This document shows positions 1 to 12,699 of a DNA stretch of 39,536 bases, piece after piece. A model generated the notes under the pieces. The model ran no database searches. It was given only the letters and a program-made list of their open reading frames with translations, and was not told where the DNA came from. The DNA comes from Escherichia phage NC-A: the sequence record MK310182, one strand, 5' to 3'. The first letter of the stretch is position 1, and every line of letters begins with the position of its first letter. Position numbers and translations under genes: made by a program.

Positions 1-158
1 TCTCACAGTGTACGGACCCAAAGTTCCCCCCATAGGGGTACCTAAAGCCCAGCCAATCACCTAAAGACAACCGAAGGTTGACCTTGAGGGTTCCCTAGGG
101 TTGGGATGACCATTTAGTTGTCCTTTGGGTGTTACCTTGAGTGTCTCTCTGTGTCCCT
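1..158. repeat. Left direct terminal repeat (genome end)
   Basis: Bases 1-158 are repeated identically at 39379-39536; begins TCTCACAGTGTACGGACC as in the T7 terminal redundancy. Confidence 0.95.
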
Positions 159-164
159 ATCTGT

Positions 165-350
165 TACAGCCTCCTAAAGTATCCTCTTGAATCATCCTCC
201 TAAAGTCACCTCCTAAAGTCCTTCCTAAAGCCAACACCTAAAGCCTACACCCAAAGACACCATGAGTCAACGCCTATCTTAAAGTATCTTCTAAAGACCA
301 GCCTAAAGACCATCCTAAAGCCTATCCCTAAAGACGCCTTGTTGTTGCCT
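165..350. repeat. Array of imperfect CCTAAAG-type heptamer repeats next to the left terminal repeat
   Basis: About 12 copies of (C/T)CTAAAG spaced 10-20 bp apart; T7 has the same kind of array at its left end. Confidence 0.8.
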
Positions 351-381
351 ATAAAGAGATACCCTTTAATCATTGTCTCTT

Positions 382-404
382 TAATACGACTCACTATAAG
401 GAGA
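382..404 (+). promoter_or_regulatory. T7 RNAP promoter phiOL
   Basis: TAATACGACTCACTATAAGGAGA, near-consensus 23-mer. Confidence 0.85.
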
Positions 405-458
405 GAGACTACTTAAAGACCTTAAAGAGATTAATTTAAAGATTTATTAAAATTAGTG

Positions 459-495
459 TTGACTTTAAGTCTAACCTATAGGATACTTTGAGCCA
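459..495 (+). promoter_or_regulatory. E. coli RNAP early promoter A1
   Basis: -35 TTGACT (459-464), -10 GATACT (482-487); matches T7 A1 architecture. Confidence 0.85.
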
Positions 496-584
496 TCGAG
501 AGGGACACGGTGAGTAACCATCCCAATCGACACCGGGTCAAACGGTTAAGTAGACAGCCTGATAAGTCGTATGAAAAACAGGTA

Positions 585-622
585 TTGACAACACGAAGTA
601 ACATGCAGTAAGATACACAGCG
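585..622 (+). promoter_or_regulatory. E. coli RNAP early promoter A2
   Basis: -35 TTGACA (585-590), -10 TAAGAT (609-614). Confidence 0.8.
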
Positions 623-690
623 TCAACCGGACGAACGGTGTCTTCTAGGTGACTTAAGCGCACCACGGCACATAAGGTGAAACAAAACGG

Positions 691-728
691 TTGACAACAC
701 GAAGTAAACACGGTACGATGTACCACGA
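691..728 (+). promoter_or_regulatory. E. coli RNAP early promoter A3
   Basis: -35 TTGACA (691-696), -10 TACGAT (715-720). Confidence 0.8.
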
Positions 729-839
729 AATGACGGAACAGTGAGTCACCACACTGAAAGGTGATGCGGTCTAACGAAACCTGACCAAAGACGCTCTTTA
801 ACAATCTGGTAAATAGCTCTTGAGTGCATGACTAGCGGA

Positions 840-885
840 TAACTCAAGGGTATCGCAAGGTGCCCTTTATGATATTCACTAACAA
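840..885 (+). promoter_or_regulatory. RNase III processing hairpin R0.3 (approximate)
   Basis: ACTCAAGGGTATCGCAAGGTGCCCTTTATGAT hairpin with the CTCAAGG...CCTTTATGAT signature shared by the other R sites. Confidence 0.55.
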
Positions 886-904
886 CTGCACGAGGTAACA
901 CAAG

Positions 905-1273
905 ATGGCTATGTCTAACATGACTTACAACAACGTTTTCGACCACGCTTACGAAATGCTGAAAGAAAACATCCGTTATGATGACATCCGCGACACTGAT
1001 GACCTGCACGATGCTGTTCATATGGCTGCCGATAGCGCCGTTCCGCACTATTACAGTGACATTTTCAGCGTAATGGCAAGCGAGGGCATTGACCTTGAGT
1101 TCGAGGACTCTGGTCTTATGCCGGACACCAAGGACGTAATCCGCATCCTGCAAGCTCGCATCTATGAGCAACTCACGATTGACCTCTGGGAAGACGCTGA
1201 GGGCTTGCTGAACGAGTACCTTGAGGAAGTCGAAGAAGAGGAAGAGGAAGACTACGAAGAGGATGAAGAGTAA
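905..1273 (+). CDS. 0.3: Gene 0.3 Ocr, DNA-mimic anti-restriction protein (122 aa)
   Basis: [22 protein letters not shown]... highly acidic, recognised as T7 Ocr; longer Glu-rich C-terminal tail than I recall for T7. Confidence 0.95.
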
Positions 1274-1425
1274 TGGCTAACAACGTGCAATACGGTCTGA
1301 CCGCTCAAACTGTACTGTTCTATAGCGACATGGTGCGCTGTGGCTCCAACTGGTCGCTCGCAATGGAACACCTTAAGGAACTGTACGAAAACAACAAGGC
1401 AATAGCCTTGGAGTCTGCTGAGTGA
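1273..1425 (+). CDS. 0.4: Gene 0.4 small early protein (50 aa; FtsZ inhibitor in T7)
   Basis: ATG overlaps 0.3 stop (TAATGG); [24 protein letters not shown]...; position as in T7. Confidence 0.8.
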   Translation: MANNVQYGLTAQTVLFYSDMVRCGSNWSLAMEHLKELYENNKAIALESAE

Positions 1426-1470
1426 TAGACTCAAGGTCGCTCCTAATGAGTGGCCTTTATGATTATCACT
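1426..1470 (+). promoter_or_regulatory. RNase III site R0.5
   Basis: GACTCAAGGTCGCTCCTAATGAGTGGCCTTTATGATTATCAC. Confidence 0.6.
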
Positions 1471-1491
1471 TAACTTGAGGAATCAACGCAC

Positions 1492-1620
1492 ATGATTACT
1501 ATCAGTATACTCACCGCTCTAGGTCTGGTTGTAGGTGCACCCTTAGGGAAGTCTGTATGTGTAGCCGTGGGTGCTTACTTAGTATCTTGCATCATCACAG
1601 GAGCACTGCGCAAATGCTGA
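1492..1620 (+). CDS. 0.5: Gene 0.5 small hydrophobic early protein (42 aa)
   Basis: MITISILTALGLVVGAPLGK..., single predicted transmembrane helix; position as T7 0.5. Confidence 0.6.
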   Translation: MITISILTALGLVVGAPLGKSVCVAVGAYLVSCIITGALRKC

Positions 1621-1751
1621 AATACTACGTCATGCCCATCCATACACGCAATGGGTCTACTGTATGCACACCTGATGGGTTCGCAATGAAACAACGAATC
1701 GAACGCCTTAAGCGTGAACTCCGCACCAACCGTAAGCTGAACAACATCTGA
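1614..1751 (+). CDS. 0.6: Gene 0.6 small basic early protein (45 aa)
   Basis: MLKYYVMPIHTRNGST... start overlaps 0.5 stop; an upstream ATG at 1557 is also possible. Confidence 0.55.
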   Translation: MLKYYVMPIHTRNGSTVCTPDGFAMKQRIERLKRELRTNRKLNNI

Positions 1752-1763
1752 GGCACTAACACC

Positions 1764-1979
1764 ATGGAAAATACCGAAGGTTTAAAGCGCGGCTATATGC
1801 CTAACGGGACACTTTATGCAGCAAATAGGCGGATTGTGAGAGAGTGGCGAGCAAACAACCTCGAACGCCGTAAGGAACAGGAGCGCGCTGCATGGCATCG
1901 GCGAAAGGAAAAGGTTAAAGCCAAGAAACTGGCAGCACTTGAACGGGCACTAGCCAACACACTGAACGCTATCTCATAA
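1764..1979 (+). CDS. 0.6B/0.65-like basic early protein (71 aa)
   Basis: ORF between 0.6 and 0.7; Arg/Lys-rich helical C-terminus. Confidence 0.5.
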
Positions 1980-2001
1980 AGAACATACAGGACACACTAC
2001 A

Positions 2002-3081
2002 ATGAACATTACTGACATCACGAACGCAATCGACGCAATCAAAGCACTACCAATCTGTGAACTTGACAAGCGCCAAGGTATGCTCATCGACTTACTGGTC
2101 GAGATGGTCAATAGCGAGACATGCGATGGAGATATAACCGAACTGCATCAGTGTCTCGAGGCGCAAGATTGGTGGGCTACCTTGAAGTGTCTCACGGCTG
2201 ACGCTGGATTCAAGATGCTCGGTAATGGTCACTTCTCGGCTGCCTATAGTCACCCTCTGCTGCCTAAACGAGTTATTAAGGTGGGCTTTAAGAAAGAGGA
2301 CTCAGGCGCTGCGTATACCGCATTCTGCCGCATGTATCAGGGTCGCGCTGGTATCCCTAACATCTATGATGTACAGCGTCACGCTGGGTGCTATACGGTG
2401 GTTCTTGATGCACTCAACGACTGTGAATCGTATGATAATGAGGTGCACGATAAATATGCTGGGATTGCAAGCGATATTATTGACTGCAAATCGGCTGCAT
2501 ATGATAAGCGTACCGGATGGGATGGGGAGTTCGTCGAGACTTGCAAGCTAATCCGCAAGTTCTTTGAGGGCATCGCCTCGTTCGATATGCATAGTGGTAA
2601 CATCATGTTCGACGATAACGATGTGCCGTACATTACTGACCCTGTGTCATTCTCGCACAAGAAAGACGGTGGCGCTTTCAGTATTGACCCTGAGGAACTC
2701 ATTAAGGAAGTCGAGGAGGTAGCACTACAGAGGGCAATAGACCGCGCTAAGGCACGCAAGGTACGCCACGAGGGGCGCTTAGAGAAGCGTAGAATGAAAC
2801 GTCGCAACCGTAAGGCACGTAAAGCACACCGCGAAAAGTGCCAACGAAAGGTTGCACTTATGAACATAGCAAGAGGCCAGGACTGGCGCAATCACGTCAG
2901 AGTAAGGGATGCCATTGGTACAGTCAGACACGCAAACGCATGGGCACAAATGCAGCTTGCGGACTTTAAGGCGCTTGAAGAACGCATAGCGGCCCATTGG
3001 CTCGTAGCTGACAGGATGGCTATCGCTAACGGGCTGCCACTTAACATCGACAAGAAACTTGACGCAATGCTAATGGGCTGA
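2002..3081 (+). CDS. 0.7: Gene 0.7 Ser/Thr protein kinase, host shut-off (359 aa)
   Basis: Same length as T7 gp0.7; basic C-terminal tail. Confidence 0.95.
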
Positions 3082-3084
3082 TAG

Positions 3085-3150
3085 TCTTATCTTACAGGTC
3101 ATCTACGGGTGGCCTGAATAGATACGATTTACTAACCGAAAGAGGCGCTA
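3085..3150 (+). promoter_or_regulatory. RNase III site R1 region (approximate)
   Basis: Imperfect inverted repeat CAGGTCATC...GGTGGCCTG just upstream of gene 1. Confidence 0.4.
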
Positions 3151-3151
3151 A

Positions 3152-5803
3152 ATGAACACGATTAACATCGCTAAGAACGACTTCTCTGACATCGAACTGG
3201 CTGCTATCCCTTTCAATACTCTCGCTGACCATTACGGTGAGCGTTTAGCTCGTGAGCAACTAGCTCTTGAGCATGAGTCTTACGAGATGGGTGAAGCACG
3301 CTTCCGCAAGATGTTTGAGCGTCAACTTAAGGCGGGTGAGGTTGCTGATAACGCTGCTGCAAAGCCTCTAATTGCTACCCTGCTACCCAAGATGATTGCA
3401 CGCATCAACGAGTGGTTTGAGGAGGTACAAGCTAAGCGTGGCAAGCGTCCAACAGCTTTCCAATTCCTGCAAGAAATAAAACCGGAAGCCGTAGCGTACA
3501 TCACCATTAAGACAACGCTGGCTTGCCTAACGAGCGTAGACAATACAACCGTTCAGGCTGTAGCCAGTGCAATCGGTCGAGCTATCGAGGATGAGGCTCG
3601 CTTTGGTCACATCCGTGACCTTGAAGCTAAGCACTTCAAGAAACGCGTTGAGGAACAGCTTAACAAGCGCGTAGGTCACGTCTACAAGAAAGCATTTATG
3701 CAAGTTGTCGAGGCTGACATGCTCTCCAAAGGTCTACTGGGTGGAGAGGCGTGGTCTTCGTGGCACAAGGAGGACTCAATTCATGTAGGTGTGCGCTGCA
3801 TTGAGATGCTTATTGAGTCAACCGGAATGGTTAACTTACATCGTCAGAATGCTGGAGTTGTGGGCCAAGACTCTGAGACTATCGAACTCGCACCGGAATA
3901 CGCTGAGGCTATCGCCACTCGTGCTGGTGCACTGGCTGGTATTTCCCCAATGTTACAACCTTGTGTAGTTCCTCCTAAGCCTTGGACTGGTATTACTGGA
4001 GGTGGCTATTGGGCCAACGGTCGCCGCCCTCTGGCTCTGGTGCGTACTCACAGCAAGAAAGCACTGATGCGCTACGAAGATGTTTACATGCCTGAGGTGT
4101 ACAAGGCGATTAACATTGCGCAAAACACCGCATGGAAAATCAACAAGAAAGTCCTAGCGGTCGCCAACGTAATCACTAAGTGGAAGCATTGTCCGGTCGA
4201 GGATATCCCAGCGATTGAGCGTGAAGAACTCCCGATGAAACCGGAAGACATCGACACGAATCCTGAGGCTCTCACCGCTTGGAAACGCGCTGCTGCCGCT
4301 GTGTACCGTAAAGACAAGGCTCGCAAGTCCCGCCGTATCAGCCTTGAGTTCATGCTTGAGCAAGCCAATAAGTTCGCTAACCACAAAGCTATCTGGTTCC
4401 CTTACAATATGGACTGGCGCGGTCGTGTTTACGCTGTGTCAATGTTCAACCCGCAAGGTAACGACATGACCAAAGGGCTGCTAACACTGGCTAAAGGTAA
4501 ACCAATCGGCAAGGATGGTTTCTACTGGTTGAAGATTCATGGTGCTAACTGCGCGGGAGTTGACAAGGTTCCATTCCCTGAGCGCATCAAGTTCATTGAG
4601 GACAACCACGAGAACATCCTAGCATGCGCTAAGTCTCCTCTGGAGAACACTTGGTGGGCCGAACAAGATTCGCCGTTCTGCTTCTTAGCGTTCTGCTTTG
4701 AGTACGCTGGGGTACAGCACCACGGCTTAAGCTATAACTGCTCGCTGCCACTGGCGTTTGATGGGTCTTGCTCAGGTATCCAGCACTTCTCCGCAATGCT
4801 CCGCGATGAGGTAGGTGGTCGTGCTGTTAACCTCCTTCCTAGTGAAACCGTTCAGGACATCTACGGGATTGTTGCTAAGAAAGTTAACGAGATTCTCCAA
4901 GCTGACGTAATCAACGGGACCGACAACGAAGTAGTGACTGTGACCGATGAGAACACTGGCGAAATCTCTGAGAAAATCAAACTGGGTACTAAAGCACTGG
5001 CTGGTCAATGGCTGGCTTACGGTGTTACACGCAGTGTGACTAAGCGTTCAGTCATGACGTTGGCCTACGGGTCCAAAGAGTTCGGCTTTCGCCAGCAAGT
5101 CCTTGAGGATACCATTCAGCCAGCTATTGATTCCGGCAAGGGTCTGATGTTCACTCAACCTAATCAGGCCGCTGGGTACATGGCGAAACTGATTTGGGAA
5201 TCTGTGAGCGTGACCGTAGTCGCCGCTGTAAAGGCAATGAACTGGCTCAAGTCTGCCGCTAAGCTGCTGGCTGCTGAGGTCAAAGATAAGAAGACTGGAG
5301 AGATTCTTCGTAAGCGTTGCGCGGTACATTGGGTAACTCCTGATGGGTTCCCTGTGTGGCAGGAATACAAGAAGCCTATACAGACCCGCTTAAACCTCAT
5401 GTTCCTCGGTCAGTTCCGCTTACAGCCTACCATTAACACCAACAAGGATAGCGAGATTGATGCACACAAACAGGAGTCCGGTATCGCTCCGAACTTTGTT
5501 CACAGTCAAGATGGTAGCCACCTGCGTAAGACCGTAGTGTGGGCGCACGAGAAGTACGGAATCGAATCATTTGCGTTGATTCACGACTCATTCGGGACCA
5601 TTCCGGCAGACGCTGCCAACCTGTTCAAAGCTGTGCGCGAAACAATGGTTGACACTTATGAGTCTTGTGATGTACTGGCTGACTTCTACGGGCAGTTCGC
5701 AGACCAGCTTCACGAATCTCAATTGGATAAAATGCCAGCACTTCCGGCTAAAGGTAACTTGAATCTCCAAGACATCCTTAAGTCAGACTTTGCGTTCGCG
5801 TAA
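3152..5803 (+). CDS. 1: Gene 1 T7-type single-subunit RNA polymerase (883 aa)
   Basis: MNTINIAKNDFSDIELAAIPFNTLADHYGERLAREQ...; same length as T7 RNAP; genome carries cognate T7 promoters. Confidence 0.99.
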   Translation: MNTINIAKNDFSDIELAAIPFNTLADHYGERLAREQLALEHESYEMGEARFRKMFERQLKAGEVADNAAAKPLIATLLPKMIARINEWFEEVQAKRGKRPTAFQFLQEIKPEAVAYITIKTTLACLTSVDNTTVQAVASAIGRAIEDEARFGHIRDLEAKHFKKRVEEQLNKRVGHVYKKAFMQVVEADMLSKGLLGGEAWSSWHKEDSIHVGVRCIEMLIESTGMVNLHRQNAGVVGQDSETIELAPEYAEAIATRAGALAGISPMLQPCVVPPKPWTGITGGGYWANGRRPLALVRTHSKKALMRYEDVYMPEVYKAINIAQNTAWKINKKVLAVANVITKWKHCPVEDIPAIEREELPMKPEDIDTNPEALTAWKRAAAAVYRKDKARKSRRISLEFMLEQANKFANHKAIWFPYNMDWRGRVYAVSMFNPQGNDMTKGLLTLAKGKPIGKDGFYWLKIHGANCAGVDKVPFPERIKFIEDNHENILACAKSPLENTWWAEQDSPFCFLAFCFEYAGVQHHGLSYNCSLPLAFDGSCSGIQHFSAMLRDEVGGRAVNLLPSETVQDIYGIVAKKVNEILQADVINGTDNEVVTVTDENTGEISEKIKLGTKALAGQWLAYGVTRSVTKRSVMTLAYGSKEFGFRQQVLEDTIQPAIDSGKGLMFTQPNQAAGYMAKLIWESVSVTVVAAVKAMNWLKSAAKLLAAEVKDKKTGEILRKRCAVHWVTPDGFPVWQEYKKPIQTRLNLMFLGQFRLQPTINTNKDSEIDAHKQESGIAPNFVHSQDGSHLRKTVVWAHEKYGIESFALIHDSFGTIPADAANLFKAVRETMVDTYESCDVLADFYGQFADQLHESQLDKMPALPAKGNLNLQDILKSDFAFA

Positions 5804-5811
5804 CGTCAAAT

Positions 5812-5834
5812 TAATACGACTCACTATAGAGGGA
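5812..5834 (+). promoter_or_regulatory. T7 promoter phi1.1A
   Basis: TAATACGACTCACTATAGAGGGA. Confidence 0.9.
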
Positions 5835-5835
5835 C

Positions 5836-5877
5836 AGACTCAAGGTCATTCACAAGAGTGGCCTTTATGATTGACCT
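5836..5877 (+). promoter_or_regulatory. RNase III site R1.1
   Basis: AGACTCAAGGTCATTCACAAGAGTGGCCTTTATGATTGACC. Confidence 0.6.
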
Positions 5878-5884
5878 TCTGCGT

Positions 5885-5907
5885 TAATTCGACTCACTAT
5901 AGGGAGA
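5885..5907 (+). promoter_or_regulatory. T7 promoter phi1.1B
   Basis: TAATTCGACTCACTATAGGGAGA. Confidence 0.9.
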
Positions 5908-5987
5908 ACCTTAAGGTTTAACTTTAAGACCCTTAAGTGTTAATTAGAGAGATATAAATTAAAGATTACTAAGAGAGGACTTTAAGT
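5908..5987 (+). other. AT-rich primary replication origin region downstream of phi1.1A/B
   Basis: AT-rich tract (CTTAAGGTTTAACTTTAAGACCCTTAAGTGTTAATTAGAGAGATATAAATTAAAG) in the position of the T7 primary origin. Confidence 0.6.
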
Positions 5988-6116
5988 ATGCGTAACTTCG
6001 AAAAGATGACCAAACGTTCTAACCGTAACGCTCATGACCTCGAGGCAACCAAAGGTCGCAAGTTGAATAAGACTAAGCGTGACCGCTCTCATAAACGTAG
6101 CTGGGAGGGTCAGTAA
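5988..6116 (+). CDS. 1.1: Gene 1.1 small basic protein (42 aa)
   Basis: MRNFEKMTKRSNRNAHDLEATKGRK...; SD AAGAGAGG upstream. Confidence 0.85.
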   Translation: MRNFEKMTKRSNRNAHDLEATKGRKLNKTKRDRSHKRSWEGQ

Positions 6117-6117
6117 G

Positions 6118-6390
6118 ATGGGTCGCTTATATAGTGGTAACTTAATGGCGTTCAAGGATGCCATAGAGAGGCTTAAAGAAGACCACGATGTCCGTGTGGT
6201 CACTGAGACTTATCGATATGAGAACTACGCACAGCGCCGATGGGTATCCGGTGAGACTCTCCGTATTGTCCTACGTAATGGCCTCGTGCTGACATCCAAG
6301 CGTTTCGAACAGTCAGACGAAGATGTCCGATGCAATGCCAAGACTGAGTGGCTCCGTAAGGTACACGCAGACTTGAAGCACTGGAAGTAA
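6118..6390 (+). CDS. 1.2: Gene 1.2 protein (90 aa), homologue of the T7 dGTPase inhibitor
   Basis: Conserved N-terminus MGRLYSGNL.AFK and C-terminus DLKHWK; central part diverges from T7 gp1.2 as I recall it. Confidence 0.8.
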   Translation: MGRLYSGNLMAFKDAIERLKEDHDVRVVTETYRYENYAQRRWVSGETLRIVLRNGLVLTSKRFEQSDEDVRCNAKTEWLRKVHADLKHWK

Positions 6391-6410
6391 TACGACTCAG
6401 TATAGGAGGA
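6388..6410 (+). promoter_or_regulatory. T7 promoter phi1.3
   Basis: TAATACGACTCAGTATAGGAGGA, overlaps 1.2 stop. Confidence 0.85.
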
Positions 6411-6450
6411 CAATGCTTAAGGTCGCTCTCACCGAGTGGCCTTAGTCGTT
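6411..6450 (+). promoter_or_regulatory. RNase III site R1.3
   Basis: CAATGCTTAAGGTCGCTCTCACCGAGTGGCCTTAGTCG. Confidence 0.55.
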
Positions 6451-6475
6451 TAACCTCAACATGGAGATAAACCTT

Positions 6476-7498
6476 ATGATGAACATTAAGACCAACCCGT
6501 TTAAAGCAACGTCCTTCGTAGAGTCTGCCGTTAAGAAGGCTCTGGATAACGCTGGGTATCTTATCGCTGACGTTAAATATGATGGTGTCCGTGGTAACAT
6601 CTGCGTAGACAATACCGCTAACGGTTGCTGGCTCTCTCGCGTATCTAAAACGATTCCGGCACTGGAGCACTTAAACGGTTTCGACGTTCGGTGGAAGCAT
6701 CTCCTGAATGATGACCGTTGTTTCTACAAAGATGGCTTTATGTTGGATGGCGAACTTATGGTCAAGGGAGTGGACTTTAACACGGGGTCCGGCCTACTAC
6801 GCACCAAATGGACTGACACTAAGAACCAAGAGTTCCATGAAGTGTTGTTCGTTGAGCCAGTACGTAAGAAAGAGAAGATACCGTTTCACCTGCACGCAAT
6901 GAAACTTCAAGTTAAACTTTATGCTGTACTACCGCTGCACATCGTAGAGTCTGGAGAAGACTGTGACATTATGACGCTGCTTATGCAGGAACACGTTAAG
7001 AATATGCTGCCTCTGCTACAGGAATACTACCCTGAAATAGAATGGCAAGCGGCTGAATCTTATGAGGTTTATGATATGGTCGAACTCCAGCAACTGTACG
7101 AGGCCAAGCGGGAAGAAGGACATGAGGGTCTCATTGTGAAAGACCCAATGTGCATCTACAAGCGCGGTAAGAAGTCCGGCTGGTGGAAACTCAAGCCTCT
7201 TGAGGAAGCTGACGGAATCATTCAAGGTGTAAACTGGGGAACAGAAGGACTTGCTAACGAAGGTAAGGTAATTGGGTTCAAGGTGCTTCTTGAGACTGGT
7301 CGTCTTGTCGATGCCAATAACATCTCTCGCGCCTTAATGGATGAATTTACAGCTAACGTTAAAGAACATGGCGAAGACTACTATAATGGCTGGGCTTGCC
7401 AGATTGGATTTATGGAGGTAACTAACGATGGGAGTCTCAGACATCCTTCATTCTCATGTTTCCGTGGAACAGAAGATAATCGCTGCGAAAAAATGTAA
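6476..7498 (+). CDS. 1.3: Gene 1.3 ATP-dependent DNA ligase (340 aa)
   Basis: MMNIKTNPFKA...KYDGVRG adenylation motif; SD GGAGA 8 nt upstream; track ORF starts at upstream ATG 6461 with no SD. Confidence 0.93.
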   Translation: MMNIKTNPFKATSFVESAVKKALDNAGYLIADVKYDGVRGNICVDNTANGCWLSRVSKTIPALEHLNGFDVRWKHLLNDDRCFYKDGFMLDGELMVKGVDFNTGSGLLRTKWTDTKNQEFHEVLFVEPVRKKEKIPFHLHAMKLQVKLYAVLPLHIVESGEDCDIMTLLMQEHVKNMLPLLQEYYPEIEWQAAESYEVYDMVELQQLYEAKREEGHEGLIVKDPMCIYKRGKKSGWWKLKPLEEADGIIQGVNWGTEGLANEGKVIGFKVLLETGRLVDANNISRALMDEFTANVKEHGEDYYNGWACQIGFMEVTNDGSLRHPSFSCFRGTEDNRCEKM

Positions 7499-7907
7499 AT
7501 ACAATCCGGCCAGTCCTTCGGGGCTGGTCTTTTTGCGTTTCGGTAAACCAGTTAAAATGGGAACTTTGCGCAAAGATGGTTATTGGTCTACTCAGCTTGG
7601 CAAGAAGAACGTACAGGTACACCGCATAGTTTGGGTGCTAAACTTTGGGTCTATACCCGCTGGTATGGAGATAGACCATATAAACAGGAATCCTAGCGAT
7701 AATCGGATAGAGAACCTTAGGCTAGTGACTAGATCACAGAATGGGTTTAACAGAAGAGTTCCTAAGCAGTCAAGAACCGGTGAGAGATACATCCACACTT
7801 GCTCCAAGACTGGTAGGTTTATAGTGCGGATTTCTGGTAAATCCTACGGCACATATGGTACTCTCGAAGAGGCTATAGCTGTGCGAGATGCTAATACGAC
7901 TCACTAA
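7428..7907 (+). CDS. HNH-AP2 family endonuclease-like protein (159 aa; alternative start 7557 gives 116 aa)
   Basis: HNH_3-type motif DGYW...VHRIVW...IDHINRNPSDNRIENLRLVTRSQN then AP2-like C-terminus YIHTCSKTGRFIVRISGKSYGTYGTLEEAIAVRD; SD GGAGGT 8 nt before ATG 7428; rare codons (AGG/AGA/ATA/CTA). Confidence 0.75.
   Translation: MGVSDILHSHVSVEQKIIAAKKCKYNPASPSGLVFLRFGKPVKMGTLRKDGYWSTQLGKKNVQVHRIVWVLNFGSIPAGMEIDHINRNPSDNRIENLRLVTRSQNGFNRRVPKQSRTGERYIHTCSKTGRFIVRISGKSYGTYGTLEEAIAVRDANTTH
7508..7535 (+). terminator. Early (E. coli RNAP) intrinsic terminator TE
   Basis: GGCCAGTCC-TTCG-GGGCTGGTC hairpin followed by TTTTTGCGTTT; same architecture as the T7 TE element I recall (CTGGCTCACCTTCGGGTGGGCCTTTCTGCGTTT). 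Confidence 0.85.
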
Positions 7908-7914
7908 AGGAGGT
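7892..7914 (+). promoter_or_regulatory. T7 promoter phi1.5
   Basis: TAATACGACTCACTAAAGGAGGT. Confidence 0.9.
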
Positions 7915-7921
7915 ACACACC

Positions 7922-8011
7922 ATGATGTACTTAATGCCACTACTAATCATCATCGTCGGATGCCTTGTGCTCCATTACAGCGATGACGATATGCCAGATG
8001 GTCACGCTTAA
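7922..8011 (+). CDS. 1.5: Gene 1.5 small hydrophobic protein (29 aa)
   Basis: MMYLMPLLIIIVGCLVLHYSDDDMPDGHA; lies between phi1.5 and phi1.6 as in T7. Confidence 0.75.
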   Translation: MMYLMPLLIIIVGCLVLHYSDDDMPDGHA

Positions 8012-8031
8012 TACGACTCACTAAAGGAGAC
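8009..8031 (+). promoter_or_regulatory. T7 promoter phi1.6
   Basis: TAATACGACTCACTAAAGGAGAC. Confidence 0.9.
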
Positions 8032-8036
8032 ACTAT

Positions 8037-8297
8037 ATGTTTCGACTTCATTACAACAAAAGCCTTAAGGGTTTCTCAGTTCGCCGTGCTGACCGTTCAA
8101 TCGTATGTGCGAGCGAGCGCCGAGCTAAGCTGCCTCTTATTGGTGACACGGTTCCTTTGTCACCTAGCGTCCACATCATTATCACTCGCGGTGACTTTGA
8201 GAAAGCAATAGACAAGAAACGTCCGGTTCTTAGTGTGGCAGTGACCCGCTTCCCGTTCGTCCGTCTGTTACTCAAACGAATCAAGGAGGTGTTCTGA
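8037..8297 (+). CDS. 1.6: Gene 1.6 protein (86 aa)
   Basis: [21 protein letters not shown]...; T7 gp1.6 homologue. Confidence 0.9.
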
Positions 8298-8600
8298 TGG
8301 GTTGCATAGCTTGCTTAGAGAAAGATGACCGTTACCCACATACGTGTCAACCTGTGGCTAAGCCACAAGCTATAGATGGCGTTCGTACTCCGAGCCATTA
8401 CATGCTGTTCGACGACATTGAGGCTATCGAAGTGATTGCCCGTTCAATGACTCGTGAGCAGTTCAAAGGCTATTGCTTCGGGAACATCTTAAAGTATCGC
8501 CTACGGGCTGGTAAGAAATCAGAACTGGCTTACTTAGAGAAGGATATGGCGAAGGCTTGGTTCTATGGTGAACTGTACGAGAAACATAAGGACAAGTGCT

Positions 8601-8611
<11 letters not shown>
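8297..8611 (+). CDS. 1.7: Gene 1.7-like protein, short form (104 aa)
   Basis: Contains CIACLEKDDRYPHTC and PSHYMLFDDIEAIEVIARSMT...KYRLRAGKK blocks of T7 gp1.7 (nucleotide kinase) but about 90 aa shorter than the 196-aa T7 protein I recall. Confidence 0.8.
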
Positions 8612-8916
<305 letters not shown>

Positions 8917-8919
<3 letters not shown>

Positions 8920-8939
8920 TACGACTCACTATTGGGAGA
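8917..8939 (+). promoter_or_regulatory. T7 promoter phi2.5
   Basis: TAATACGACTCACTATTGGGAGA. Confidence 0.85.
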
Positions 8940-8985
8940 AGACTCCCTATGAGAAACTAAACGAAACCTAAAGGAGATTAACATT

Positions 8986-9684
8986 ATGGCTAAGAAGATT
9001 TTCACCTCTGCGCTGGGTACCGCTGAACCTTACGCTTACATCGGTAAGCCGGACTACGGTAACGAAGAGCGTGGCTTTGGGAACCCTCGTGGTGTCTACA
9101 AAGTTGACCTGACTATTCCCAACAAAGACCCGCGCTGCCAGCGTATGGTCGATGAAATCGTGAAGTGCCACGAAGAGGCTTATTCTGCTGCCGTTGAGGA
9201 ATACGAAGCTAACCCGCCTGCTGTAGCTCGTGGTAAGAAACCGCTGAAACCGTATGAAGGTGACATGCCGTTCTTCGATAACGGTGACGGCACGACTACC
9301 TTTAAGTTCAAATGCTACGCGTCTTTCCAAGACAAGAAGACCAAAGAGACCAAGCACATAAATCTGGTTGTGGTTGACTCCAAAGGTAAGAAGCTGGAAG
9401 AAGTGCCGATTATCGGTGGCGGCTCTAAGCTGAAAGTCAAGTACTCTCTGGTCCCGTACAAGTGGAACACTGCTGTGGGTGCTAGCGTTAAGCTGCAACT
9501 GGAATCCGTAATGCTGGTCGAACTGGCTACCTTTGGTGGCGGCGAAGACGATTGGGCTGACGAAGTCGAAGAGAACGGCTATGTTGCCTCTGGTTCTGCC
9601 AAAGCGAGCAAACCACGCGACGAAGAAAGCTGGGACGAAGACGACGGTGAGTCCTACGAAGAAGACGAAGACGGAGACTTCTAA
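8986..9684 (+). CDS. 2.5: Gene 2.5 single-stranded DNA-binding protein (232 aa)
   Basis: MAKKIFTSALGTAEPYAYIGKPDYG... acidic C-terminal tail ending DGDF. Confidence 0.97.
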   Translation: MAKKIFTSALGTAEPYAYIGKPDYGNEERGFGNPRGVYKVDLTIPNKDPRCQRMVDEIVKCHEEAYSAAVEEYEANPPAVARGKKPLKPYEGDMPFFDNGDGTTTFKFKCYASFQDKKTKETKHINLVVVDSKGKKLEEVPIIGGGSKLKVKYSLVPYKWNTAVGASVKLQLESVMLVELATFGGGEDDWADEVEENGYVASGSAKASKPRDEESWDEDDGESYEEDEDGDF

Positions 9685-10140
9685 GTGGCTGGCGCATACG
9701 CTGCGCGTGGTATCCGAAAGGTCGGGACATTCCGTTCCGGCCTAGAAGATAAGGTCTCTAAGCAGCTAGAGGGTAAGGGCATCAAGTTCGACTATGAACT
9801 GTGGAAAATCCCTTACGTTGTCCCTGCGAGCAACCATGTGTATACTCCAGACTTCCTGCTGCCTAACGGAATCTTCATTGAAACCAAAGGTTTATGGGAG
9901 AGTGACGACCGAAAGAAACACTTATTGATTCGCGAACAGTTTCCCGAACTGGACATCCGTCTGGTGTTCTCAAGCTCGCGCACCAAGCTGTACAAAGGGT
10001 CTCCGACCAGTTACGGTGAATGGTGCGAGAAGCACGGTATCCTGTTTGCTGACAAATTAATTCCTGTGGAATGGCTCAAAGAACCTAAAAAGGAGGTGCC
10101 ATTTGACAAGCTGAAACAATCGAAGGGAGGAAAGAAATAA
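9685..10140 (+). CDS. 3: Gene 3 endonuclease I, Holliday-junction resolvase (151 aa), GTG start
   Basis: (M)AGAYAARGIRKVGTFRSGLEDKVSKQLEGKGIKF...PDFLLPNGIFIETKGLWESDDRKKHLL; GTG directly follows 2.5 stop. Confidence 0.9.
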   Translation: MAGAYAARGIRKVGTFRSGLEDKVSKQLEGKGIKFDYELWKIPYVVPASNHVYTPDFLLPNGIFIETKGLWESDDRKKHLLIREQFPELDIRLVFSSSRTKLYKGSPTSYGEWCEKHGILFADKLIPVEWLKEPKKEVPFDKLKQSKGGKK

Positions 10141-10595
10141 TGTCTCGTGTACAGTTTAAACAGCGTGAATCTACTGACGCAATCTTTGTCCACTGCTCTG
10201 CTACCAAGCCAAGTCAGAATGTAGGTGTACGAGAGATTCGCCAGTGGCACAAAGAGCAGGGCTGGTTGGACGTAGGCTATCACTTTATCATCAAGCGAGA
10301 TGGTACTGTAGAGGAAGGCCGAGATGAGATGGCTGTAGGCTCTCATGCTAAGGGCTACAACCACAACTCTATTGGTGTCTGCCTTGTAGGTGGTATCGAC
10401 GATAAAGGTAAGTTCGACGCTAACTTTACGCCAGCCCAGATGCAATCCCTTCGCTCACTGCTTGTCACACTTCTGGCTAAGTACGAAGGCGCTGTGCTTC
10501 GCGCCCATCACGATGTGGCACCTAAGGCTTGCCCATCGTTCGACCTTAAGCGTTGGTGGGAGAAGAACGAACTGGTCACTTCTGACCGTGGATAA
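10140..10595 (+). CDS. 3.5: Gene 3.5 lysozyme / N-acetylmuramoyl-L-alanine amidase, RNAP inhibitor (151 aa)
   Basis: MSRVQFKQRESTDAIFVHCSATKPSQNVGVREIRQWH... Confidence 0.97.
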   Translation: MSRVQFKQRESTDAIFVHCSATKPSQNVGVREIRQWHKEQGWLDVGYHFIIKRDGTVEEGRDEMAVGSHAKGYNHNSIGVCLVGGIDDKGKFDANFTPAQMQSLRSLLVTLLAKYEGAVLRAHHDVAPKACPSFDLKRWWEKNELVTSDRG

Positions 10596-10596
10596 T

Positions 10597-10619
10597 TAAT
10601 TGAACTCACTAAAGGGAGA
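10597..10619 (+). promoter_or_regulatory. T7 promoter phi3.8
   Basis: TAATTGAACTCACTAAAGGGAGA. Confidence 0.85.
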
Positions 10620-10655
10620 CCACAACGGTTTCCCTTTGTTCGCAATGGAGGTCAA
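10620..10655 (+). promoter_or_regulatory. RNase III site R3.8 region (approximate)
   Basis: CCACAACGGTTTCCCTTTGTTCGC leader downstream of phi3.8, same leader as phi10. Confidence 0.35.
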
Positions 10656-10658
10656 ATA

Positions 10659-12699
<2,041 letters not shown>

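Follow-up and report, generated by a model that had tools for sequence, protein, structure and literature searches.

The predicted early terminator TE within the 5′ part of a predicted HNH homing endonuclease gene in the T7-like Escherichia phage NC-A

The stretch of DNA analysed here (the window) is the complete 39.5 kb genome (39,536 nt) of the T7-like Escherichia phage NC-A (MK310182). On its plus strand, positions 7508-7541 hold a hairpin followed by a U-rich tract; we identify this element as TE, the early intrinsic terminator of the phage, which corresponds to the TE of T7 and whose ability to terminate is predicted by analogy with T7. It lies inside the open reading frame (ORF) of an HNH homing endonuclease (7428-7907), of which it codes residues 27-38 when translation is counted from the ATG at 7428. 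We consider it probable that the host RNA polymerase stops at TE, that the complete HNH mRNA arises by read-through, and that the endonuclease is made with class II timing.

In T7, the class I genes are transcribed by the host polymerase, and the class II and III genes by T7 RNA polymerase, T-phi being described as the single T7 terminator (10.1101/647024). A first-pass annotation of the NC-A sequence had proposed the same interpretation, and each part of it that can be put to the test on sequence is supported by the present comparison, which drew on about 100 relatives.

The TE hairpin

The hairpin (7508-7529, + strand) starts 10 nt past the ligase stop and consists of a 9-bp stem, with the arms GGCCAGTCC (7508-7516) and GGGCTGGTC (7521-7529), and a UUCG loop (TTCG in the DNA, 7517-7520). 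It is followed by the U-rich tract TTTTTGCGTTTC (7530-7541, + strand), which begins with TTTTT (7530-7534) and continues as GCGTTTC. The location of hairpin and U-tract in the 5′ part of the HNH ORF, as first annotated, is accurate to the base, as seen by reading the sequence directly: in the frame of ATG 7428, bases 7506-7541 translate as PASPSGLVFLRF (P27-A-S-P-S-G-L-V-F-L-R-F38, codons 27-38), the hairpin coding A28-S-P-S-G-L-V34 and the U-rich tract F35-L-R-F38.

The element has the features of an intrinsic terminator, namely a G+C-rich stem-loop, a U-rich tract directly 3′ of the stem, and covariation. It also has the position of a T7-group TE, because it is the first terminator after the early promoters, downstream of the ligase gene 1.3 and upstream of phi1.5. 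In alignments, the hairpin coincides exactly with the TE annotated in T7 (V01146, position 7588) and in 13a, just past the ligase stop. In a consensus scan of positions 1-12000 it was the strongest plus-strand terminator-like site (9 pairs, 6 of them G-C, a loop of 4 and a T-run), and no other strong plus-strand candidate was found from the early promoters (459-719) to 12000; both results bear out its earlier identification as TE. As RNA, the hairpin folds with -18.3 kcal/mol (z = -3.2), and 2 of 200 shuffled sequences fold equally well.

Comparison gives the stronger evidence. The stem was compared across 22 distinct hairpins, taken from HNH-carrying and HNH-less relatives alike. In this set, 86% of the cells pair and two-sided changes are found at six of the nine pairs; the covariation score of 0.552 exceeds that of the shuffles (0.214 +/- 0.031), none of which (0/500) reached it, and sliding the partners by 1-3 columns lowered the score to 0.162 or less. 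These compensatory changes, together with the covariation, indicate that the hairpin structure is under selection.

The HNH gene

The ORF that contains TE (7428-7907, + strand, 159 aa; from the ORF list and Pfam) is of the phiYeO3-12 gene 1.45 type and I-HmuI-like. Residues 63-106 match Pfam HNH_3 with 76.5 bits (cut-off 24.8), and the HNH core residues D83, H84, N96 and N108 do not vary among 60 aligned sequences. An AlphaFold model built on a 60-sequence alignment has a predicted local distance difference test score (pLDDT) of 88.9, and its top Foldseek match is I-HmuI (1U3E; E = 2e-4, 35% identity over 86 columns). Orthologues occur at the same ligase-phi1.5 locus in at least 18 other phages from seven genera, the HNH-carrying genera examined being Teseptimavirus, Teetrevirus, Przondovirus, Berlinvirus, Elunavirus, Kayfunavirus and Ningirsuvirus. 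The distribution is the one expected of a mobile gene, with 19 HNH-carrying and 78 HNH-less unique loci that share common ligase and phi1.5-type flanks. From domain, fold and presence/absence pattern, the product is predicted to be an HNH_3, I-HmuI-like homing endonuclease. A search of IMG/VR with the HNH protein returned almost exclusively unrelated HNH_3 genes, aligning from residue 40-50, and one T7-like locus.

The gene is annotated inconsistently by current pipelines, several GenBank records shortening or omitting it. Its start is shortened, or the gene is unannotated, in PQ010280, MT822287, OK663600, OR067836, OK042080, KJ748011 and PP079211 (loci L003, L008, L010, L011 and L017-L019 of our set), and the full ORF is intact in each of them.

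The start codon

Whether TE is a coding element depends on where the HNH gene starts. The ATG at 7428 is made of a ligase Asp codon, GAT, and the G of the next Gly codon, so the gene overlaps the ligase 3′ end by 71 nt (7428-7498, + strand) in the +1 frame. A GGAGG Shine-Dalgarno sequence (7414-7418, + strand), made by the ligase codons M-E-V, precedes the ATG by 9 nt. In 19 of 19 HNH-carrying sequences an open frame begins at this one ligase-internal ATG, for which the ligase supplies an Asp or Asn codon (GAT or AAT) plus the Gly G. The first-pass annotation had offered an internal Met at 7557 as an alternative start, and here the comparison went the other way, several lines of evidence favoring the long ORF from 7428 as the real one.

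The first line comes from the overlap itself, for which 18 HNH-carrying and 73 HNH-less unique sequences were compared by Fisher tests that are uncorrected for phylogeny. The ATG triplet is present in 18/18 HNH-carrying overlaps and in 34/73 HNH-less ones, the rest of which have the synonymous GAC (p = 1e-5). A proline is encoded within overlap codons 12-24 in 1 of 18 HNH-carrying sequences, compared with 52 of 73 that lack the gene (p = 3e-7); prolines, like stops, are avoided in the overlap of HNH-carrying phages only. Where the ligase C-terminus is nearly identical in the two groups, FRGTEDNP.EK., its codons give S-E-E-L-R-T-I in the +1 frame of HNH-carrying phages, and the synonymous codons of T7-type HNH-less ones give S-V-A-P-R-T-T.

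Synonymous choice within the last 23 ligase codons also differs between the two groups, with GAT or GAC at D-G and GGA ACT or GGC ACC at G-T. This difference (7428-7498; loci L001-L019 and L100-L181) fits selection on the HNH frame that overlaps the ligase.

A second line is found at TE. In every HNH-carrying phage, P-S-G stands at codon 30 counted from the ligase-internal ATG, and the TE loops of these phages are TTCG, TTCT, TTCC and TTCA only, all of them synonymous Ser codons. The loops of HNH-less phages also include TTAG, which is a stop in the HNH frame, as well as GAAA, TCAC, TAAC and AACA. Third, 18 of 19 HNH-carrying phages lack any in-frame ATG, GTG or TTG from TE up to about codon 59, a point already at the HNH core.

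Two further tests of the start were set aside. Conservation of the Shine-Dalgarno sequence was dropped, GGAGG being dictated by the ligase M-E-E codons and therefore common in HNH-less phages too (67/78, with 18/19 in HNH carriers). Openness of the frame upstream of the ligase stop does not discriminate, since HNH-less phages, too, often have an open +1 frame there.

The competing possibility is that the endonuclease is translated from the internal in-frame ATG at 7557-7559 (+ strand; Met44) as a protein of 116 aa, in which case TE would lie in an untranslated leader and the long ORF would be an accident of the ligase frame. Some observations fit it. The 116-aa form was picked by gene callers in two close relatives (P0003), and the +1 frame at the ligase 3′ end is frequently open without any HNH gene. 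A 91-protein profile of distant HNH_3 proteins aligns to the window ORF from residue 43 only. An N-terminal-only HNH_3 profile scores 0.3 bits for the window, 32 of 300 shuffles doing as well, and is significant solely at GKPxGxxRKD, just past the T-run. MAFFT does place Y25 and G32 on the conserved Y and G of the HNH_3 N-terminal module (consensus F.Y..G.L.W); because the profiles align only from residue 43, N-terminal homology was not used as proof, and residues 1-38 may either have belonged to the ancestral endonuclease or have been overprinted on sequence of the phage backbone.

A close relative, L181 (Logan contig ERR12350059_202363, 1340-1545, corresponding to 7400-7600 of the window; HNH 95% identical), has six T, not five, in the TE T-run. 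The extra T breaks the long HNH frame, and the leader ends at a TAA 1 nt before the equivalent of ATG 7557, a layout that would suit an internal start. It may permit termination-reinitiation, or the extra T may be a homopolymer assembly error; in the sister contig L180 there are five T and the long HNH frame is open.

Against an internal start, Met44 is confined to the window's own lineage, where it belongs to a V-K-M insertion at a place where the closest relatives have C, and it is absent from the other HNH-carrying phages, nearly all of which would then be left with no start between TE and the HNH core. It has no Shine-Dalgarno sequence upstream, whereas the upstream ATG equivalent to 7428 is invariant in HNH carriers and not in HNH-less phages. 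The P-S-G codons are likewise invariant and the loop varies only synonymously. The N-terminus is also modeled with confidence by AlphaFold: residues 11-43 have pLDDT 84-92 and form a helix (13-21), a strand (23-25), the PASPSG turn, and strands 33-37 and 40-43. Translation from 7557 is thus unlikely, and we retain the start at 7428. The points that count against this choice are the late onset of profile homology described above, the phylogeny left out of the Fisher tests, the AlphaFold confidence of the N-terminus, which may be borrowed from the alignment, and a 116-residue product that is conceivable in the window lineage, given Met44 and L181.

Coding and pairing in the same bases

Given the start at 7428, the same bases have to code and to pair. 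The innermost stem pairs are the CC and GG of the P and G codons. In the third pair, the third base of a Ser or Ala codon faces the third base of Gly, and the codon couples AGT/GGG, AGC/GGG and GCT/GGA all occur, T7 having TCA/GGT at this place. In the outer stem, the window type reads A-S-P-S-G-L-V and the Bas102, YeO3-12 and KP32 type A-A-P-S-G-V-V, and the paired changes switch G-C to C-G. Stem pairing is kept partly via third-codon positions and partly via paired amino acid changes, Ser going with Leu in the window type and Ala with Val in the Bas102 and YeO3-12 type. The predicted HNH structure has an N-terminal beta-hairpin whose P-S-G turn is specified by the TE loop together with the inner stem. 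Coding for this turn does not require the RNA hairpin, because two HNH-carrying phages, W2B and Rambo, have P-S-G and no hairpin.

Promoters around TE and expected timing

Three sigma-70-type early promoters were identified by consensus scan at 459-487, 585-614 and 691-719 (+ strand; 9-10 of 12 hexamer matches), which we take to be the counterparts of T7 A1-A3 by analogy. From these would originate the host-polymerase transcripts that TE would stop.

The phage polymerase has promoters of its own upstream of TE. A pattern search, for which the chance expectation is 0 matches, located T7-type promoters on the plus strand at 5812-5834 (2 mismatches to the T7 consensus), 5885-5907 (1 mismatch) and 6388-6410 (3 mismatches), the positional counterparts of phi1.1A, phi1.1B and phi1.3. 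The third is the last phage promoter before TE, and phi1.3 is annotated in T7 at the equivalent place. The same search found no T7-type promoter between 6410 and 7892. The next one, phi1.5 (7892-7914, + strand), stands at a position that is annotated as phi1.5 in 13a and T7 when aligned. Its sequence, TAATACGACTCACTAAAGGAGGT, overlaps the HNH 3′ end, coding the last four residues, N-T-T-H, and containing the stop at 7905-7907. The HNH gene thus has a regulatory signal on either side, TE and phi1.5, and overlaps both.

Because there is no phage promoter between TE and the HNH body, full-length HNH mRNA requires read-through. This agrees with the earlier claim that the HNH body is transcribed only by passing TE, since the nearest upstream promoters are those at 5812, 5885 and 6388 and the next, at 7892, overlaps the HNH stop. 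Host RNA polymerase coming from the early promoters would stop at TE and leave transcripts with about 36 HNH codons and no stop codon. The complete mRNA would come only from transcripts that pass TE, made chiefly by T7 RNA polymerase from phi1.1A, phi1.1B and phi1.3, and the endonuclease would be made with class II timing. Host-polymerase termination, T7-polymerase read-through and the resulting timing are the steps that we infer from T7 biology. Because every class II gene lies downstream of TE, such gating probably follows from the retention of TE by the phage and is not a device built for the endonuclease.

T7 RNA polymerase can itself terminate partially at some hairpin-plus-U terminators. 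The run of five U in the window is longer than that of T7 TE, so some termination by the phage polymerase is possible, which would count against free read-through.

The only sigma-70-like match nearby, at 7451-7480 (TTCTCA, an 18-nt spacer and GATAAT; 9 of 12), falls in the ligase/HNH overlap upstream of TE. It is probably meaningless, as the region has fewer such matches than expected by chance.

Alternatives to termination at TE

The hairpin might not be a working terminator here, but a by-product of the P-S-G codons or an RNA element with another role, such as 3′-end protection or ribosome pausing; early transcription would then end elsewhere or at no discrete site. Two relatives show that the hairpin can exist without being TE: PE3-1 and phiHAO1-1 have the inner hairpin (GGCTCC-TTCG-GGAGTC) without a T-run, and a terminator after HNH. 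The Bas102, YeO3-12 and KP32 types have poor U-tract tails, and the total of terminator-like sites in the scan of 1-12000 is at chance level (13 found, 10.7 expected). Several observations speak for a terminator. The window U-tract, TTTTTGCGTTTC, is the best of all HNH-carrying phages and nearly identical to that of T7 TE, TTTCTGCGTTT, and the first 12,000 positions offer no other strong plus-strand candidate in its place. The HNH-less loci L161 and L163 have nearly the same stem and tail as the sole element separating the ligase gene from the next promoter. Covariation is also seen in the outer stem pairs, which are dispensable for the P-S-G codons, and the P-S-G codons of W2B and Rambo do without a hairpin. 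A hairpin that does not terminate is therefore improbable in the window, and we keep to termination at TE.

Ribosomes close behind RNA polymerase can mask intragenic terminators, and the hairpin lies inside an ORF with a good Shine-Dalgarno sequence, so that translation of the HNH leader through the hairpin might suppress termination on host transcripts, leaving TE leaky and the endonuclease also early; this is very improbable, because the HNH start is internal and out of frame in the translated ligase gene, where initiation is probably weak, and because ribosomes translating the ligase come to a halt 10 nt short of the stem, which is also the situation in T7, whose TE is annotated as functional.

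TE inside or after the HNH gene in relatives

Not all HNH-carrying phages have TE inside the gene. In five of them, a separate terminator-like hairpin is found at or just after the HNH stop: Ebrios (L015, 867-893), W2B (L016, 800-821), Rambo (L017, 875-902), PE3-1 (L018, 867-894) and phiHAO1-1 (L019, about 8-35 nt past the HNH stop at 860). The downstream hairpin of W2B and Rambo closely resembles a T3- or T7-type TE (GGCTCACC...GGTGGGCC). In the internal P-S-G region of these five phages, W2B and Rambo have no hairpin, PE3-1 and phiHAO1-1 have one that lacks a T-run, and Ebrios has only a weak tail.

The other 15 HNH-carrying loci, the window among them, have no terminator-like hairpin after the HNH stop, as judged by a terminator-pattern scan in Bas102, phiYeO3-12 and KP32 and from the folded sequence in the remainder; in most of them, a promoter is found there instead. 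Each of the 15 has the internal hairpin, followed by a tail that contains T, and the tail of the window is the best. This association, in a small and phylogenetically structured sample, fits an internal hairpin that acts as TE where no other terminator exists. It also indicates that a place downstream of TE is not a general need of this gene family.

HNH-less phages provide the complementary picture. In 13a, L161 and L163, TE directly abuts the next promoter, and in the last two (L161:2093-2160, IMG/VR 2974600058; L163:2027-2095, IMG/VR 2706795205) the stem is almost the same as in the window and the tail identical (...CAGTCC...GGGCTGG.CTTTTTGCGTTTC). Because their TE matches and the next promoter follows, the DNA specific to HNH carriers extends from about 7542 into the phi1.5 promoter. 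The promoter that directly follows TE in L161 and L163 is of a different specificity (..GACTCACTATGGAGGA).

L161 and L163 could be remnants of HNH loss or could show the ancestral state; more generally, the HNH-less phages may have lost the gene body or the HNH carriers may have gained it, and the data fit either. That T7 TE descends from an HNH relic is neither supported nor excluded. The T7- or T3-type TE downstream of an intact HNH gene in Rambo and W2B argues that the two hairpins are separate elements, and L161 and L163 argue that a window-type hairpin can persist without HNH.

One speculation, which we regard as rather unlikely, is that in window-type phages the codons of the P-S-G turn became the only early terminator after loss of the canonical TE, the separate downstream element that relatives such as Rambo, W2B, PE3-1 and Ebrios still have. 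If this were true, a selfish gene would carry a signal that the phage needs, and HNH-less phages such as L161 and L163 would keep an HNH 5′ relic as their TE. The coding sequence of a mobile element would then have become a core transcription signal, which would help to explain why a clean loss of the element is difficult.

Genome context

The ligase gene 1.3 (6461-7498, + strand) encodes an ATP-dependent DNA ligase of 345 aa, identified from the ORF list and the Pfam domains DNA_ligase_A_M and DNA_ligase_C. Downstream of phi1.5, a further T7-type promoter, phi1.6, is found at 8009, and the genome has a full set of T7-type promoters. No Rfam family reached its gathering score across the window (1-39536, both strands). 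The RNA polymerase region is about 91% identical to that of several Teseptimavirus-group phages, with no closer match among the phage-collection records.

Implications

The understanding of T7-group gene expression is unchanged by these results. Their interest lies in a single 34-nt stretch that is both terminator and protein-coding, beside a gene overlap of 71 nt, and the arrangement suggests, short of proof, that production of this homing endonuclease waits until the phage polymerase is active. Three comparative details are useful for annotation and for engineering: the dual coding, selection acting at synonymous sites of the ligase gene, and a TE that alternates between a place inside the HNH gene and one after it. 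In T7-like genomes, deletion or recoding of the endonuclease touches the boundary between early and middle transcription, and the ligase 3′ end is not freely recodable.

Comparison with known systems

TE inside an HNH gene is an arrangement already annotated in phiYeO3-12 and widespread among T7 relatives. Full-text literature searches found no text that discusses gene 1.45 and TE together, the GenBank record AJ251805 being the sole documentary source; it annotates a "putative early transcriptional terminator TE" inside gene 1.45. This gene occupies the same locus as the window HNH gene, between ligase 1.3 and phi1.5, and starts at the same ligase-internal ATG. Like the window, it has P-S-G at codon 30, a TTCG-loop hairpin across the P-S-G codons, and an HNH stop in the phi1.5 promoter. 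The two proteins are about 55% identical, and phiYeO3-12 has no Met at the position of the window Met44. The stems differ, GGCTCC/GGAGTC in phiYeO3-12 and GGCCAGTCC/GGGCTGGTC in the window, by compensatory changes, and the phiYeO3-12 tail, GTTTCCGCC, is a weaker U-tract than TTTTTGCG of the window.

In T7 (V01146, 7588) and 13a, TE resembles that of the window in lying about 10 nt past the ligase stop behind the same upstream promoter set. It also has a stem of 8-9 bp with a C-G pair closing a UUCG loop and nearly the same loop-closing CC/GG. The T7 tail, TTTCTGCGTTT, is nearly the same as that of the window, TTTTTGCGTTT; the stem letters differ and still pair. In these two phages, however, TE is intergenic, with no HNH gene after it: in T7 the next gene is 1.4, and in 13a TE abuts phi1.5. 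In T7 relatives the loop is free to vary; among its forms are TTAG and GAAA, which in the HNH frame would read as a stop and as Lys, respectively.

I-HmuI of the Bacillus phage SPO1 (PDB 1U3E) shares with the window protein the HNH_3 domain and a small C-terminal module for DNA binding. The gene for I-HmuI sits in an intron within a DNA polymerase gene, whereas the predicted endonuclease gene of the window is free-standing, overlaps the ligase gene and has TE in its 5′ part.

A comparable case is T4, in which the expression of I-TevI and of free-standing endonuclease genes is delayed through transcript structure, being tied to the transcription programme and to 5′ RNA hairpins. There, the hairpins mask the ribosome-binding sites on early transcripts, and late promoters yield translatable mRNA. 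The window differs from the T4 endonuclease genes in that its hairpin is a predicted terminator inside the ORF, which would be read through by a different RNA polymerase.

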